From Candidatus Parcubacteria bacterium (GTDB lineage: Bacteria; Patescibacteriota; Minisyncoccia; UBA9983): a stretch of DNA of 47,755 nt. Positions 10,895 through 38,352 of the stretch are shown here, one piece after another. The notes below the pieces were generated by a model, which was not told the DNA's origin, searched no databases, and saw only the letters and a list, made by a program, of their open reading frames with translations. Both the position numbers and the translations under genes were made by a program. Position 1 is the stretch's first letter. Each line of letters begins with the position of its first letter. Location: assembly GCA_003599625.1 (NCBI GenBank), contig QZIU01000017.1:1-47755 (forward strand), given 5' to 3'.

Positions 10895-11046
10895 TGTGTA
10901 AAACTTTTCCAACCTGCCTGGTTGTCTTCAACCTGGAAGGTTGGTTGAGTTTTGCACAGATATTTATAATTCTCGCCTGTGGATAACTTTGCCGACCAGC
11001 CAGGTTTGAAACCCAACCAGGCAGGTCTTCAAAGTTACCCACAGGC
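10895..11046. repeat. Pair of related hairpin elements in opposite orientation
   Basis: 10895-10958 and 10975-11046 each carry CCTGCCTGGTTG...CAA(A)CCTGG inside outer stems ending TGTG/CACA; third copy at 17896-17969. Confidence 0.75.
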
Positions 11047-11049
11047 TCC

Positions 11050-11151
11050 CCTAGTCCCTTCTTAAGCCTAGTCCCTAGTCCCTTCTTAAGCCTAGTCCCT
11101 AGTCCCTAGTCCCTTCTTAAGCCTAGTCCCTAGTCCCTAGTCCCTTCTTAA
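11050..11151. repeat. Compound tandem repeat (CCTAGTC)n-CCTTCTTAAG overlapping the uvrC stop
   Basis: Four units with n = 1, 2, 3, 3 read directly from the sequence. Confidence 0.95.
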
Positions 11152-12306
11152 TTCCATCTTCTTCCTCCGTCTTCTGGCAAAGTTGGCAAAACGGTGGGCT
11201 TCGTCGCGGACCTTGAGCAAAGTTCCTTTTACCGCTTCGGCCAATTCCTTGAAAGACTTTGCCGCTCCGGCGGGGAAAACCAAATTATCTTTTTGGAGCT
11301 TGGAAATTCCCACGATCGGGATCCTTATCTTACTTTCTTCCAAAACCCTCGACACGAACAAAACTTGCGGCCTGCCGCCGTCTATCAGGATCAGATCGGG
11401 AGCTTGCCACTCAGGATGATTGAATCGTCTTTCGATCGTTTCCTTTAGCGCGGCAAGGTCGTCATTGGCCGGAGCTTCCTTGATTTTGAATAATCTATAC
11501 TCATCTTTATTTTCCCGTCCATCGGAAAAAACCACCATCGCGCCGAAAGTCTCTTTCCCGGCAAAATGCGATACGTCATATCCTTCAATCCGATTCAAAC
11601 CGCCCAAGAAACCATTCCCTTCTTCTTTTGACAGCAATGCCACATCCTGAATATGTTTGAGGCTTTCCGCCCTTTCCGGATTTTCCCTTACGAGCTTTTT
11701 AAGCAGGCGTTTCTTATCGCCTCGCAAAAACATCGCCAGATCCTTTATATTCTTTTGATAATCTTCCTTGCTTATCGCCCCTATGCAGATGCCAGGGCAA
11801 AGCCCGATCTGATAATGGAAGCATGGCTTGCCCTGATTCGGGACGCAAGTGCTGTACGGAAATATTCTTCTCGCTATCTTCAGAATTTCTTTTGCGATCC
11901 TCAAGCTTGTGAACGGGCCGAAAACTTCCGCCGAACCGTTGGAAAATTTGGAAAGTTCCTTACCCCTGACCACGATCGGCTTGGGATAGTCCTTCTTAGC
12001 GATCACGATATAAATGAAAGAGCGGTCATCTCTCTCCCTTACGTTATATTTGGGCCAATGCCTTTTGATCAGCTCCGCTTCCGATATGTATGATTCGAGA
12101 ACGGTGTCCGTAACTTGGTGTTTAATCTCACTGGCGGACTCGACCATTTCTTTTATTCTTGGGTCGATATCAAGACGAAAATAACTGGCCACCCTTCGTT
12201 TCAAAAAAGTCGCCCGGCCGACATAGAGGACTGAAGCCTTGTCGTCAAGAAACATGTATATACCAGGCTTGTTGGGTAATTTTTTAGCTTGATCAATAAT
12301 TCCCAT
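11137..12306 (-). CDS. uvrC: Excinuclease ABC subunit C, short form
   Basis: GIY-YIG domain (PGIY..LYVGRA), Cys cluster, RNase H-like domain (RIEGYDVSH, LIDGG, RDEAHRFA); no C-terminal HhH region. Confidence 0.88.
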   Translation of the reverse strand: MGIIDQAKKLPNKPGIYMFLDDKASVLYVGRATFLKRRVASYFRLDIDPRIKEMVESASEIKHQVTDTVLESYISEAELIKRHWPKYNVRERDDRSFIYIVIAKKDYPKPIVVRGKELSKFSNGSAEVFGPFTSLRIAKEILKIARRIFPYSTCVPNQGKPCFHYQIGLCPGICIGAISKEDYQKNIKDLAMFLRGDKKRLLKKLVRENPERAESLKHIQDVALLSKEEGNGFLGGLNRIEGYDVSHFAGKETFGAMVVFSDGRENKDEYRLFKIKEAPANDDLAALKETIERRFNHPEWQAPDLILIDGGRPQVLFVSRVLEESKIRIPIVGISKLQKDNLVFPAGAAKSFKELAEAVKGTLLKVRDEAHRFANFARRRRKKMELRRD

Positions 12307-12416
12307 AAACTCAAAACTTATAACTCAAAACTCAAAACCACAACTTAAAATTTCAAAACTGATTTGCTTTTACTTTTTAGTTGCAGTTTTGACTTTTGAG
12401 TTTTGACCTTTGACTT
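12307..12416. repeat. Heptamer-periodic inverted array (AAAACTC type)
   Basis: AAAACTC-like 7-mers on the left, GAGTTTT/GACTTTT-like 7-mers on the right; fills the uvrA-uvrC spacer. Confidence 0.8.
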
Positions 12417-12419
12417 AAC

Positions 12420-14924
12420 TTATTTCTTCAAACCGTGAATTTTAAGGTATTTCTTAAGATATTTTCCCGTTTCCGATTTCGTCTCCTTTGCCACTTCTTC
12501 CGGCGTTCCCGCGGCCACAAGACGGCCGCCCTTTTCTCCTCCTTCCGGACCCAGGTCCAATATATGATCGGCGCTTTTTATGACATGCATATTGTGCTCG
12601 ATGATGACCACCGAATTTCCTTTTTCCACGAGCTTGTTCAAAACCTTGAGCAGCAACTCGATGTCCTGATAATGCAAACCGACTGTCGGCTCATCCAAAA
12701 TATACAACGCCCGTTTGCCCAGCGGCCCCACCAGTTCCCTCGCCAATTTGATCCTCTGGGCCTCTCCTCCGGAAAGCGTCGTGGCCGACTGGCCAAGTTC
12801 CAGGTAACCAAGCCCCACTTCTTCCAAAACTTTGAGCTTGTCAGTGATCATATATATTCCGTCAAAAAATTCTTTGGCTTCCGAAACCGGCATCCTCAAA
12901 ACATCGCTGATATTCTTTCTCTTGTATTTTACCTCCAGCGTTTCTCGATTGAACCTCTTGCCATGGCAGACTTCGCACTCCACCGTGACGGCGGGCAAGA
13001 AGTGCATTTCTATCACCTTGAACCCCGCTCCTTCGCAGGCTTCGCATCTGCCGCCCGGACGGTTGAAAGAGAAACGGGAATGGGTATAACCTCGCTCCTT
13101 GGCCTCGGGCAAAGAAGCGTAAAAATCTCTTATGTGCGTAAAGATCCCCGTGTAAGTGGCCGGATTCGATCTTGGGCTTCGCCCTATCGGGGACTGATCC
13201 ACCATCACGATCTTATCGATATATTCGGCGCCAAAGACTTTGCTTGCATTTTCCAACGGCTCATTGATCCGCGATTTGATCCTGTTCAAGTTTTTGTACA
13301 ACACGTCATAAAGAAGAGTCGACTTGCCGCTGCCTGAAACTCCGGTTATGCAAACAAGTTTCCTTAAAGGAATCTCGGCATTCAAGTTCTTCAAATTATT
13401 GGCGGTCGCGCCGATTATTCTTATGCTCTCTGTCGTTTTTGTCCTTCTTGCCGGAATTTCTATTTTCCTTTTCTCTGTCAAATAATCCAAAGTCAAAGAT
13501 CTTGCCGGCGGCGCCTTCAATAACTTATCAAGAAAGCCTGAAGCCACTACCTCTCCTCCCTTTTTGCCCGCTTCCGGACCGAGATCAACCAGATAATCGG
13601 CGGCAAAGATAGTCTCCTCGTCATGCTCCACCACTATAACGCTGTTATTTTGGTCCCTTAACGATCTCAGCGTTCTTATAAGCCGATCCGTGTCGCGTTC
13701 GTGCAAACCGATTGTCGGTTCGTCCAAGACATAAAGAGTCCCCGACAATTTCGAACCGATCTGAGAAGCAAGTCTTATTCGCTGGGCTTCTCCGCCGGAC
13801 AAGGTCTCCGCCTCTCTCTCCATCGTCAAATAATCCAAACCGACTTCTAGCAGAAAACTCAACCTGTCGGTTATTTCTTTCACCACATTGATGGCGATCT
13901 TCTTGTCCCATTCCGACATCTTATCTTCATATTCGACGAAAAATTCATAAGCTTTTTCTATTGAGAGCGCCGCCACCTCCTGAATGTTTTTGTTTTTGAT
14001 TTTTACCGACAAGGCTTCCGGCTTCAATCTTTTCCCGTGACATTCCGGGCAAATCGTTCCCAAAAACAAATCCACTTTACCGAGGCCGTTGCAGGTCGGA
14101 CAAGCGCCGTATGGGCTGTTGAAGGAAAAAAGTCTCGGCTCCACTTCCGGAAAAGCGAAGTTATCAACCGGACAAGTCCAGTTGGCGGAAAGGAGAAGTT
14201 CCTCTTTCTGAAAAATAGCAGTCAACAGTCCTTTGCTCTGAGCAAGCGCGCTTTCCACCGCCTCGAAGAGACGCGTCTGATCGCTTATCATCACCCTGTC
14301 AATGACTATTTCAATAGTATGAGGTTTATATCTCGACAAAACGATCTTCTCGTGAAGACTGTGAAATTTTCCATCTATCCTGGCTTCGGAAAAACCGAGA
14401 TTAAGCATATTATACAGAAGCTGATAGTATTCCCCTTTGCGTCCGCGGACGACGGGCGACAAAATCATAGCTGTTTCCTCCTTCAGTTTTTTCGCCTTAT
14501 CGATTATGATATTCACCATCTCTTCCGGAGAAAGTTTTTGAATTCTGGTTCCGTCGTTGGGACAAAACACATCTCCCAGTCTGGCGTACAAAACGCGAAG
14601 ATAGTCGTAAATCTCGGTAAGGGTTCCGACGGTTGAGCGGGGGTTGTGAGAGAGGGCTCTTTGATCTATGGCGATGGCCGGAGAAAGTCCGATGATCTCA
14701 TCCACGTCGGGACGATCCATCTGGCCAAGGAATTGCCTGGCGTAAGGAGAAAGCGATTCGATATACCTTCTCTGGCCTTCGGCGAAAATCGTGTCAAAAG
14801 CCAGTGACGATTTACCCGAACCGGACACGCCCGTAAAGACCACCAACTTGTTCTTGGGAATTTCCAGTGAAACATTCTTCAGATTATGCACCCTCGCGCC
14901 TTTGATGATTATTTTGTCGTCCAT
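12420..14924 (-). CDS. uvrA: Excinuclease ABC subunit A
   Basis: Two ABC ATPase modules ([22 protein letters not shown]) and Zn-finger CxxC pairs. Confidence 0.96.
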
Positions 14925-17663: not shown

Positions 17664-17702
17664 ATAAAGCCTTATTACACCAAAAAACCGCCTGGCGGTC
17701 AA

Positions 17703-17742
17703 TGTCTTCAAGGTTAAACCTCGAGTTTTAACCTTGAAGACA
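17703..17742. repeat. Hairpin upstream of uvrB
   Basis: TGTCTTCAAGGTTAAA-CCTCGAGT-TTTAACCTTGAAGACA, 16-bp perfect stem. Confidence 0.75.
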
Positions 17743-17895
17743 ACCTTTTCCTGATTTCGTCAATATTTCGAAAAAACTGTCGCTTGATAAAATATAAAGA
17801 TGTTCAATAAGACATCTCTGAAGTTTGTTTTAGGTTTCCTGCTTATACTCTTTTTGAGTCTGGTGAGTTTGGCGGTGGTGCGAAGCATGCAGTAA

Positions 17896-17969
17896 AATTT
17901 TTGGCAGTCCTGCCTGGTTGCCTGCCTGCCGGCAGGCAGGTCTTCAACCTGGAAGGTCGGCCAAAAATT
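17896..17969. repeat. Hairpin element containing an inserted 20-bp palindrome
   Basis: CCTGCCTGGTTG[CCTGCCTGCCGGCAGGCAGG]TCTTCAACCTGGAAGG; uninterrupted version at 10913-10940. Confidence 0.9.
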
Positions 17970-17986
17970 GGCAAGAACCTCCATCG

Positions 17987-18700
17987 CTACGCCGCCTTCA
18001 TGTAATTTTTCCAGTAGTCGTAAAGCTCCTTGGTGGCGACGAGATCGCCGACGTTGTAACGGGCGATGTCTTTGTATCTTTTTTCTTTGAACAAAGCGGC
18101 CACATCGTCCCCCGTCACGCCCTGCGCCTTGGGACTGGTTATCCCCAGGGCTCTGCACCATAAATGCAGGCCCCCCTTTCTGCGGACGGCTCCGTAAAAA
18201 GAAAGTTGATCAAGAAGATCTATGTGGACGGCTCCGAATCTTTGGCCGTTCAAATATCGGTTGGACATAAGATCCTTGGCGACCTTTACTTTATTGGCCG
18301 CCGACCTGACCATCAAGAAAGGAACATCGAAACCCCGTCCGTTGAAAGTTATGAACTCGTTGTAAGCATTGGCGCCTTTCCAGAAATTCTCAAGCATTTC
18401 CTTTTCTGAACAAGGCTTGAAGGTTATGTTTCCCTCCTGGAAGTCTTCGAATCTTTCGTTCGGAGCCTGAAAGTAAACAACTCCTTGATTTTTATCGTAA
18501 TCAAGGACGCCGATGGCGACGATCTGTCCGGTAAGCGGAGAAAAGCCCAGGCCGTTCTTGATCTCCCCGAGAGCCTTCTCGTATTCTTCGTCCCCGTCGG
18601 AATCTTTTTTTATCCAATGAGTCAGGACATCCTGAGTGGCGGAATCAAGTTCGTCGAAATTCTCTCCGATTGTCTCTATGTCGATGATGAGTTTGGGCAT
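17987..18700 (-). CDS. DEDD-superfamily 3'-5' exonuclease (PolB-exonuclease/RNase H-like)
   Basis: IIDIET (ExoI), TFNGRGFDVPFL (ExoII), YNVGDL (ExoIII); start set at ATG 18700 because the longer track ORF overlaps the TspO gene. Confidence 0.85.
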   Translation of the reverse strand: MPKLIIDIETIGENFDELDSATQDVLTHWIKKDSDGDEEYEKALGEIKNGLGFSPLTGQIVAIGVLDYDKNQGVVYFQAPNERFEDFQEGNITFKPCSEKEMLENFWKGANAYNEFITFNGRGFDVPFLMVRSAANKVKVAKDLMSNRYLNGQRFGAVHIDLLDQLSFYGAVRRKGGLHLWCRALGITSPKAQGVTGDDVAALFKEKRYKDIARYNVGDLVATKELYDYWKNYMKAA

Positions 18701-36429: not shown

Positions 36430-36522
36430 TTTGAGTCCGACTAATGGAAAATATTTGGCAGTCACGCCAGTCCCGATTCCAGCGAGGACTGTCGCGGTCG
36501 GCCAAGTTTTCCGCAGTTTTTG

Positions 36523-38242: not shown

Positions 38243-38352
38243 TAATTATCAATTTTCAATAACCAATTTTCAATGAATTTTCAAATTTTTCAATTGAAAA
38301 TTTAAATTATTGAACATTGATTGAAAATTGTAAAATTGAAAAATTGAAAATT
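38243..38352. repeat. Heptamer-periodic inverted array (AATTTTC type), copy 2
   Basis: Homologous to 35101-35202; fills the rpoC-dnaG spacer. Confidence 0.85.

Follow-up and report, generated by a model that had tools for sequence, protein, structure and literature searches.

A perfect 20-nucleotide palindrome as a candidate REP-like mobile unit found across bacterial phyla and in phages

Comparison of filled and empty sites within a genome of Candidatus Parcubacteria, extended to related genomes, to other bacterial phyla and to viral contigs, revealed a perfectly palindromic 20-mer, CCTGCCTGCCGGCAGGCAGG, which is interpreted here, with a probability of about 60%, as a non-coding and non-autonomous palindromic nano-element of REP-like kind that is mobilised in trans and enters hairpin loops without duplicating its target. 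The narrower statement, that the filled and empty sites differ by a discrete inserted unit rather than through deletion or chance, is very probable. The main rival to the mobile reading is a cellular function for the 20-mer, alone or beside mobility. The window, that is, the whole stretch of DNA analysed, comprises the 47,755 nucleotides of contig C1 of a 905,833-base assembly of 35 contigs with 43.6% G+C (genome G000).

Filled and empty copies of a hairpin repeat

Positions 10913-10940 of the window read CCTGCCTGGTTG^TCTTCAACCTGGAAGG and positions 17909-17956 read CCTGCCTGGTTG^CCTGCCTGCCGGCAGGCAGG^TCTTCAACCTGGAAGG (carets mark the junctions), and direct reading of both sites leaves exactly the 20 nucleotides at 17921-17940 as their sole difference. 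The junction is ambiguous by one base, since G is the last letter of the left flank as well as of the insert, and no target duplication accompanies it; the exact 20-bp insertion with at most 1 bp of ambiguity and no duplication, as claimed in a preliminary description of this DNA, is thus confirmed. Both sites represent the inner stem of a longer hairpin repeat (Table 1), the limits of which the preliminary description had not given. In the filled repeat the 20-mer separates the loop (AAGA when read on the minus strand) from the 3' strand of the stem, and the whole repeat folds as one hairpin (ssDNA, -26.2 kcal/mol, z -6.5), in which the 20-mer is predicted to stack directly on the host stem and the former loop to become a 4-nt bulge.

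The window has five matches to the 20-mer at up to three mismatches; 100 dinucleotide-preserving shuffles of the window gave 0 matches at the same threshold. The variants reported earlier from elsewhere in the window were all recovered, at two or three mismatches, and three of them do follow the word TTCCAA, which directly precedes the copies at 719 and 34643, lies 6 nt before the copy at 47601 and is also found before the empty site at 10913.

Table 1. Features of the window related to the 20-mer and its host hairpin repeat
Positions	Strand	Feature	Details
719..738		Degenerate 20-mer copy	2 mismatches; TTCCAA directly before it; first part of a longer repeat that recurs at 34634-34762
10895..10958	minus	Empty type-A host hairpin repeat	64 nt; ends TGTGYAAAAC...GTTTTRCACA; ssDNA -21.5 kcal/mol, z -7.4
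10978..11043	plus	Empty type-B host hairpin repeat	66 nt; ends TGTGGATAAC...GTTACCCACA
17896..17970	minus	Filled type-A host hairpin repeat	Ends diverged
17921..17940		Exact 20-nt perfect palindrome CCTGCCTGCCGGCAGGCAGG	0 mismatches; single strand with 8-bp stem and CCGG loop; DNA fold -8.0 kcal/mol
28922..28941		Degenerate 20-mer copy	2 mismatches; within low-complexity spacer DNA
34634..34762	minus	Composite hairpin insert	In frame in the tRNA-guanine transglycosylase gene tgt (33845-35113); boundaries approximate
34643..34662		Degenerate 20-mer copy	2 mismatches; loop TTGG; in frame within tgt
47601..47620	plus	Degenerate copy of the one-letter T-form variant	3 mismatches

Counted over the whole assembly, as the preliminary description had proposed, the family in G000 comprises 8 exact copies, 17 at up to one mismatch, 23 at up to two and 25 at up to three, and seven of the nine one-mismatch copies are one and the same variant, read on either strand. 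A half-word of the 20-mer is the top non-AT-rich 12-mer of this genome, and the 20-mer itself is its top perfect palindrome of at least 16 nt.

The composition of the 20-mer, (CCTG)2 CCGG (CAGG)2, and the match of its arms to the outer stem of the host repeat (CCTGCCTGG...CCAGGCAGG) would be consistent with repeated de novo origin, through template switching or slippage on CCTG/CAGG tracts, independently each time. The series (CCTG)n CCGG (CAGG)n is represented in G000 by 0, 8 and 0 copies for n = 1, 2 and 3, respectively, and this lack of a length series rules out microsatellite growth or slippage; together with the same centre and length in genomes that do not have the host repeat, and with one identical one-letter variant in 96 genomes, it makes de novo origin very improbable.

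Regarding the host, the repeat belongs to a family of 64-67-nt hairpins with ends TGTGGAWAAC...GTTWTCCACA, in which type A has a loop of 4 nt and type B a loop of 12 nt. The 20-mer is present within 7 of 39 non-overlapping matches to this family, six of the seven being full host copies. In the four filled type-A copies it is found at AAGA^CRACC, the 3' end of the loop, and in the two filled type-B copies the T-form variant is found at GGCAG^G, close to the foot of the arm on the 3' side; the gain in length is 20 nt in five of these six copies and 19 nt in the sixth. A half-length relative of the host provides a third context, CCAAC^CCGCCGGGTTGG, which is known both filled and empty. These two host-repeat sites and the half-length relative support the earlier proposal that the 20-bp unit is mobile or copied on its own. 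If the 20-mer is left out of the comparison, each of the six filled copies proves closest to an empty one (4, 6, 9, 21, 6 and 6 differences), the closest relative of the filled type-B copy on contig C13 being the empty copy at 10978-11043, while filled copies differ from one another at 10 or more positions. The filled copies are therefore not one lineage, and reflect either repeated hits on one spot or many precise losses.

The second of these options corresponds to the view that the host hairpin was originally filled and that the empty copies lost the 20-mer through hairpin slippage. Perfect palindromes are prone to deletion, the junction offers a microhomology of 1 bp, and all four filled type-A copies have the 20-mer at one same position. 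Matches to the host repeat, in turn, number 28 in G000 and 6 in G001, a genome of the same genus, and none of 39 other relatives has more than a single weak match; the host repeat is restricted to the genus and the 20-mer is far wider in range, a difference that speaks for entry into the host rather than for loss. Further against deletion are the second site in type B and the third in the half-length element, the failure of the filled copies to cluster, the absence of the 20-mer from 10 of 10 readable glyA orthologues (see below) and the state of the orthologous spacer. The spacer that holds the filled repeat of the window is bounded on one side by a conserved ORF of 31 residues and on the other by a gene that is 3'-5' exonuclease-like according to Pfam; its orthologue in G001 is 30 nt long and has neither the host repeat nor the 20-mer, and neither was detected at the orthologous place in the best 26 of 80 metagenome loci (77-84% protein identity). 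Loss by deletion is accordingly held to be highly improbable. The preliminary description had itself given loss by slippage from an ancestral filled state, in the absence of independent insertion sites, as the case that would speak against a mobile unit, and its interpretation survives this case because independent sites were found, because glyA gained the 20-mer and because the host is confined to one genus, in contrast to the widespread 20-mer.

Range and turnover across genomes

The presence/absence comparison with a related genome that had been suggested at the outset was made with G001, which has eight exact copies of the 20-mer, five of them with both flanks mapping close together on one G000 contig. 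Among these five mappable copies, one is common to both genomes (C17:878 in G000) and four were found in G001 only; in the case of three further copies specific to G001, the spacers orthologous to theirs are too diverged for precise empty sites to be aligned. The flanks of the shared copy have diverged between the two genomes while the 20-mer stayed exact in both. At this shared locus a 16-nt palindrome, TCCGCCAGCTGGCGGA, in G001 replaces ATT of G000 and is, as judged from the two sequences, an orthologous filled/empty pair for a second word. This second exact palindrome was found in 17 of 41 relatives and has a spread similar to that of the 20-mer.

Among the same 41 relatives, the 20-mer was detected at up to one mismatch in 15, and in a sample of 401 genomes of the class the exact 20-mer was present in 132, with up to 22 copies per genome, and not found in 269; the reversed sequence, used as control, gave 0 matches in every genome. 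The genes that flank the 20-mer are unrelated from genome to genome. An all-species search with one genome per species of bacteria and archaea, amounting to 596 billion bases, recovered at least 123 stretches with the 20-mer, where about one would be expected by chance for a sequence of this length. According to the record titles, from which all taxon names of carriers were taken, 80 of these stretches comprise 23 of Patescibacteria type, 22 from Bacteroidota, 8 from Planctomycetes/PVC, 8 from Gamma-/Pseudomonadota, 6 from Omnitrophota, 6 from delta-proteobacteria, Bdellovibrionales or Thermodesulfobacteriota, 2 of Thermodesulfovibrio type and 1 from Chloroflexi, with 4 lacking a taxon. The carriers include the Bacteroidota isolates Winogradskyella echinorum, Flagellimonas yonaguniensis, Longitalea luteola and Flavivirga sp., and five genomes of named records, counted whole at up to one mismatch, have 42, 20, 9, 6 and 1 copies, the 42 copies being those of a cultured Bacteroidota isolate with a genome of 7.3 Mb (locus L235; record title Longitalea luteola SYSU D00799).

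The 20-mer is also present in viral DNA, with 40 stretches in IMG/VR viral contigs. One contig of 29.5 kb with a terminase gene has seven copies, six exact and one variant, and here, just as in the genomes G000 and G001, longer repeats that are local and specific to the genome incorporate the 20-mer. A Pfam search of 31 ORFs on two phage contigs with the 20-mer detected no transposase, the matches being to terminase and to capsid/cement proteins only. The 20-mer is often embedded in low-complexity quasi-repeats.

Given that most carriers are metagenome bins assembled from short reads, a sequencing or assembly artefact, for example an adapter-like palindrome, could be suspected. Such an artefact is extremely improbable in view of the presence of the 20-mer in isolate genomes and in large contigs or chromosomes from both isolates and MAGs (among the carriers being Winogradskyella echinorum, Flagellimonas, Longitalea luteola and Flavivirga), of point variants common to several genomes, of the reading frame that is always kept within genes, with a gain of 21 nt in glyA, and of the one orthologous copy common to two genomes. 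The glyA gain, the unrelated flanks in the 132 class genomes and the occurrence in other phyla likewise support the independence of the unit as first proposed, its movement being inferred from these comparisons.

Target sites, oriented variant and copies inside genes

In G000, 3 of the 25 copies lie within verified genes, although about 90% of the genome is ORF according to ORF calls that were made by script and are crude. The flanks of the 20-mer tend to pair with each other around it: a perfect stem of at least 5 bp was found at 53 of 230 distinct sites, against 14.7 expected when flanks were re-paired, and one of at least 6 bp at 23 of 230 sites, against 3.85 expected; since several loci lie in shared local repeats, these site statistics overstate independence, the loci read being a non-random set, the first few returned per genome, some of them from the same local repeat families. 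In 33 of the 53 flank-pairing sites the 20-mer abuts one strand of the stem, and the remaining 177 of the 230 sites have no flanking hairpin by this strict test.

A further kind of target is the D-arm of tRNAs, represented by 9 of 136 loci read, in seven of which the 20-mer is located where the D-loop meets the 3' strand of the D-stem. The interrupted tRNA-like stretches represent decayed copies or 5' fragments and have intact tRNA genes next to them. The idea of a tRNA intron was rejected: ARAGORN called none of the interrupted stretches in 12 loci, and after removal of 19-21 nt in silico called one site only (L003). Some copies are nested within other copies of the 20-mer (loci L187, L211, L190 and L197). 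The suggestion that the unit favours other repeats as targets is therefore upheld in one part and revised in another: repeats do serve as targets, but the preference is for hairpin loops generally, as seen from the 53 of 230 sites against 14.7 expected, and repeats are only one kind of hairpin target.

The one-letter variant CCTGCCTGCCGGTAGGCAGG, here called the T-form, was found exact in 96 of the 401 class genomes, and among the variants listed no other single-letter change comes near this frequency. The change results in a G-T wobble on its own strand and an A-C mismatch on the opposite strand, which allows copies to be oriented. The base before the oriented T-form is G in 26 of 39 sites and a purine in 35 of 39, while the symmetric equivalent, C after the T-form, was found in 7 of 39 (Fisher p = 2.5e-5). 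With flanks this asymmetric, the element or its target is thus read on one strand, which is taken as a hint of a single-strand step. Regarding its orientation, no bias relative to adjacent genes was detected (8 copies in the same and 10 in the opposite direction), nor was a clean strand switch along the large contig of G355, on which 12 forward and 6 reverse copies are interleaved; a mechanism tied to the lagging strand of the replication fork is therefore unsupported.

Copies were also found inside genes. The glyA gene of G005 has exactly seven extra codons (CLPAGRQ) that are absent from all 10 readable orthologues, and its gain of 21 nt consists of the 20-mer and one base, with no repeat of the flank. 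Ten Pfam-confirmed genes have an open-frame 20-mer, namely those encoding SHMT, DNA polymerase III alpha, gyrase A, a class-I Glu/Gln-tRNA synthetase, a P-type ATPase, RecG, an MnmA-type enzyme, a GSDH-like protein, a pilin leader and HrcA, and the frame is kept open at all 20-mer copies in confirmed genes, so that selection evidently removes out-of-frame insertions. One frame, reading LP(A/T)GRQ, is used in eight of nine in-gene sites outside GC-rich phage contigs (p = 0.001). The tgt gene of the window has a longer insert of about 32 extra residues, which includes the copy at 34643 and is absent from six relatives; Pfam matches the TGT domain as two stretches, and the relatives, with ORFs of 356-400 aa against 423 aa in G000, align in two pieces.

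Familiar functions of palindromes were considered for the 20-mer. A role as intrinsic terminator was rejected, as at least 5 T in the next 8 nt, on either strand, were present at 32 of 270 sites against 40 of 270 controls placed 15 nt further out, and a T-run was found at 2 of 17 sites in G000. A parS or operator palindrome was likewise rejected, given that the sites are whole-unit insertions in unrelated flanks and not conserved positions near related genes; moreover the 20-mer is not parS because G000 has a parS-like sequence of its own, AGTTTCACGTGAAACT, which we take to be such from the parS consensus. Rfam matches in the window at gathering score were limited to two tRNAs, and nothing meaningful was found at 17700-18100 (best E = 0.57).

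A functional site in a broader sense would be one that a conserved protein or RNA machine binds or processes and that selection keeps exact, with mobility secondary; the candidates are a nucleoid organiser, a topoisomerase/gyrase site or an RNA hairpin. Such a site would account for the identity of all 20 letters across phyla, for the exactness of the orthologous copy in G000 and G001 despite divergence of its flanks, for the excess of exact over one-mismatch copies in the richest genomes (22 against 6 in G372; 29 exact of 42 in G407) and for the similar spread of the second exact palindrome TCCGCCAGCTGGCGGA. It does not agree with new sites that are whole-unit insertions rather than products of point mutation, as in the host repeat and glyA, with copies in broken tRNA fragments and inside conserved enzymes, with flanking genes that are unrelated among genomes, or with a T-form that lacks orientation bias to genes; the missing T-run, the separate parS-like site of G000 and the 269 of 401 class genomes with no exact copy also count against it. 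A functional site as the primary explanation is considered unlikely.

Relation to known elements and possible mechanism

Among elements to which the mobile 20-mer may be compared, Rickettsia palindromic elements (RPEs) are about 100-150 bp long, confined to Rickettsia and habitually read through in frame, and typical MITEs are also several-fold longer than 20 nt, the latter in agreement with the earlier statement that the unit is far smaller than typical MITEs. The 20-mer shares with RPEs its palindromic nature, its position in frame in protein genes and its reading as an extra peptide, but it measures 20 nt (21 in glyA), adds seven residues and occurs across phyla, whereas RPEs are several-fold longer and belong to one genus. 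The dRS3 elements of Neisseria are 20-bp inverted-repeat words among variable short spacer repeats, with fixed ends, a variable middle and a distribution specific to the genus. The likeness of the 20-mer to dRS3 and the intergenic mosaic elements lies in the inverted-repeat word of 20 bp and in its frequent position in low-complexity quasi-repeats; in contrast to dRS3, the 20-mer is fixed over its full 20 letters and extends over a very wide range. In yeast mitochondria, GC clusters are mobile and very short GC-rich hairpins.

The organelle palindromes of Volvox are similarly described, in one account, as GC-rich hairpins of very small size that have spread through AT-richer genomes, entering spacers, genes and one another (PMC2670323), and the 20-mer resembles them in this; the organelle families are each lineage-specific, whereas one sequence of the 20-mer is common to free-living and symbiotic bacteria of several phyla. 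An RPE-1 within a gene of Rickettsia conorii is mentioned in part of a survey of such repeats (PMC3733652). With MITEs such as the Correia elements of Neisseria and those of Coxiella, which the relevant passages of two reports describe as non-autonomous, dispersed and with inverted-repeat ends, and as able to alter proteins and small RNAs (PMC5896051, PMC10969869), the 20-mer has in common non-autonomy, inverted-repeat ends, dispersal and the capacity to alter proteins and small RNAs; it differs in having neither a target-site duplication nor a parent insertion sequence with the same ends in G000. The search of G000 for such a parent found the arms CCTGCCTG/CAGGCAGG unpaired at distances of 500-3000 nt with one exception, a pair 600 nt apart that involves a degenerate copy.

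The closest known kind is the REP family of small palindromic repeats, of which the 20-mer would be an untagged, symmetrical member that is independent of RAYT by the tests made. REP and REPIN sequences are, in the parts of three publications that deal with them, short (20-40 bp), GC-rich, hairpin-forming, mostly extragenic, present in many copies, inserted without target duplication and now and then located inside genes (PMC3733652, PMC3116915, PMC3337134), and the 20-mer is alike in each of these respects. Most REPs fall into superfamilies tagged with GTAG or CGTC, and an excerpt of the same survey adds that untagged stem-loop families exist, of which "many more likely occur" (PMC3733652). 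Compared with REPs, the 20-mer is a perfect palindrome with no GTAG or CGTC tag, adjoins none of 10 Y1 genes and is abundant in genomes with no Y1 match; it has tens of copies rather than hundreds, mostly single units and not inverted doublets, and the same sequence is present in many phyla and in phage contigs.

It would be conceivable that the 20-mer is an ordinary REP/REPIN family moved by the RAYT of the genome. G000 has one RAYT-like protein (C2:1121-1639; NF047646, 109.6 bits against a cut-off of 80), Y1_Tnp genes were detected in 28 of 41 relatives, with up to 15 matches, and in four of the five larger carrier genomes, the T-form includes the letters GTAG, and REPs of 20-40 bp, at times within genes, are described in part of the survey literature (PMC3733652). 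Contrary to what this would predict, none of 10 Y1 gene loci has the 20-mer, at up to four mismatches, within 1.5 kb on either side, and PF01797 was found in one of the five richest small genomes, the other four giving no match at 92-100% completeness. The correlation with a candidate enzyme that the preliminary description had called for did not emerge, Y1 being present alike in carriers (11 of 15) and non-carriers (17 of 26) among the 41 relatives. There is no conserved terminal tetranucleotide, all flank positions from -4 to +4 except -1 reaching at most 17 of 39, and an identical 20-mer in many phyla does not match the mostly vertical inheritance of REPIN-RAYT systems as described in excerpts of one study (10.1101/2022.05.22.493013). 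Mobilisation by a resident RAYT is hence improbable.

Elements of the IS200/IS605 type are single-strand elements with hairpin ends and a Y1 transposase, which make no duplication, insert 3' of a short fixed target and are biased to the lagging strand. The 20-mer sites have no duplication and do have a hairpin; the target amounts to a preference for purines (35 of 39), no bias to one strand was detected, and Y1 is often absent (the single PF01797 genome among the five richest small genomes). Neither the sequence of the 20-mer nor a description of it was found in the papers searched by sequence string and keyword. From the sequence comparisons it looks like one of the smallest self-spreading DNA elements so far.

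In the proposed mechanism, the 20-mer at 17921-17940 would have been added whole to a pre-existing 64-nt hairpin repeat, at the junction of the loop and a stem strand. New copies would be made from existing copies of the 20-mer, a step suggested because identical variants recur, and the active form may be the folded single strand. A putative strand-transfer enzyme, acting in trans, would join this strand into the single-stranded loops of hairpins, as a rule behind a purine and frequently ahead of a G. Activity would be retained by near-perfect copies alone, by which the family would be kept uniform. The chances that transfer of a single-strand hairpin in trans is the correct mechanism are rated as roughly even.

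A more far-reaching and distinctly unlikely version is that the 20-mer could, together with at least one sister word (TCCGCCAGCTGGCGGA), be a minimal pan-bacterial replicator that has no enzyme of its own and whose sequence would have been refined to make use of a near-universal enzyme of the host. The possibility of such an enzyme is raised by the success of the 20-mer in phages and in genomes of 0.5-0.9 Mb, which have hardly any transposase genes or none. The enzyme would cut and rejoin single strands at loop-stem junctions, with type IA topoisomerase or gyrase as candidates in view of the cutting preferences of topoisomerases; the type IA enzyme is put forward because every 4-nt step of the 20-mer begins with C and finishes with G. 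If true, a replicator of this kind would explain the success of the 20-mer in small genomes poor in mobile elements, its carriage by phages and its letter-perfect identity across phyla.

The mechanism is open to direct testing because a cultured Bacteroidota isolate has 42 copies. In practical terms, the 20-mer can serve as a marker in annotation, as it may split gene and tRNA calls and as short insertions of this kind could be mistaken for lineage-specific protein loops. Regarding the genomes that carry it, the 20-mer adds seven residues to essential enzymes, among them SHMT, DNA polymerase III alpha, gyrase A and glutamyl/glutaminyl-tRNA synthetase, disrupts spare copies of tRNAs, gives rise to composite hairpin repeats and adds bulk to bacterial genomes that are among the most reduced. 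If the reading as a mobile nano-element is true, the 20-mer would be among the smallest self-spreading units of DNA, letter-identical in distant bacterial phyla and in their phages.

The host hairpin repeat and other hairpins nested in it

About 33 good copies of the host hairpin repeat, the 64-67-nt family that can hold the 20-nt palindrome (20-mer), were found in the whole genome to which the window belongs (G000), and the family is restricted to one genus. The repeat termini read TGTGGATAAC...GTTATCCACA, the DnaA-box consensus, and are thus only candidate sites for DnaA. The G000 genome contains 24 occurrences of AGTTATCCACAG. Small hairpins besides the 20-mer also nest in the host family, since one type-A copy (4-nt loop) and one type-B copy (12-nt loop) hold such elements.

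Regarding transposase genes, G000 has a single gene resembling the REP-associated tyrosine transposases (RAYT), and matches to the Y1_Tnp type number 8-15 in each of several relatives (G003, G004, G008, G013, G015, and G023), which is many given genome sizes of 0.5-0.7 Mb.

Features and their locations (positions without a contig name are those of the window; other C numbers are contigs of G000 unless prefixed, and L numbers are loci outside G000)
Feature	Location	Strand	Remarks
Host hairpin repeat	10895-10958, 10978-11043, 17896-17970		36446-36515, weak match
Type-A host copy	C15:20235-20334		3' arm holds a different 36-nt GC-rich hairpin, CCCGCCAGCC...GGGCGGG
Type-B host copy	C27:7789		CCCTGCCTGCGGGAGGCAGGG hairpin replaces part of arm
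RAYT-like gene	C2:1121-1639	minus	tightly packed among other genes
Second exact palindrome, TCCGCCAGCTGGCGGA	C5:11967, C5:14177, C16:9687, C16:10584; G001:C14:18762
Spacers with short-period quasi-repeats	11049-11169, 12308-12350, 28882-28910, 35101-35142, 38243-38284
31-residue hydrophobic ORF (MFNKTSLKF...)	17800-17895		immediately upstream of the filled hairpin
Doubly mutated 20-mer copy, CTTGCCTACCGGCAGGCAGG	L067:1339, L069:961, L077:1435		three related metagenome contigs
tRNA-guanine transglycosylase gene	33845-35113	minus	insert at about 34634-34762
Tyrosine-recombinase-like ORF	C26:9181-10521		putative, identified by reading its motifs

A second palindrome

The palindrome TCCGCCAGCTGGCGGA is represented by four copies in G000 and is present in 17 of 41 relatives, with a maximum of 16 copies, while the reversed-sequence control gave 0. 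It adjoins the 20-mer in L180 and L185 (loci outside G000) and in the same-genus genome G001, and one orthologous site is filled with it in G001 and empty in contig C17 of G000. The 20-mer can be missing from genomes rich in TCCGCCAGCTGGCGGA (G006, G007).

Spacer and tRNA surroundings of the 20-mer

Short-period quasi-repeats abound in the spacers, with words including CCCTAGT-like heptamers, AACTCAAAA, and AATTTTCAAT, and DNA of this type often surrounds the 20-mer, both in G000 and in other phyla. Because both G001 and the metagenome contigs conserve the short hydrophobic ORF next to the filled hairpin, it is probably a real gene, encoding a small membrane protein. The CTTGCCTACCGGCAGGCAGG copies lie upstream of the aligned part of an exonuclease-like gene, and this shared copy looks like an old, vertically inherited insertion.

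The 20-mer was also detected in the D-arm of tRNA remnants, either 5' fragments or decayed copies (L027, L033, L037, L038, L052, L184, and L206; also L003 and L199), and these remnants directly adjoin intact tRNA genes in distant genomes; the fragment in L027 is a local duplicate, nearly identical to the 5' half of the adjacent tRNA-Lys.

Inserts within protein genes

The tRNA-guanine transglycosylase gene contains an in-frame composite hairpin insert of about 32 residues, missing in six relatives; among its parts are an end reading TGTGGACAA, a degenerate 20-mer, and a long GC hairpin. Hairpin repeats read in frame make up a stretch of ~90 residues of the putative tyrosine-recombinase-like ORF, and this stretch holds one exact and one degenerate 20-mer. 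In DNA polymerase III alpha, at the position of the LPAGRQ insert of G003, the G000 enzyme carries an insert that differs from it and exceeds it by 30 residues (C7:about 12782-13555 vs. L011), and this loop seems either to be hit repeatedly or to tolerate insertions.
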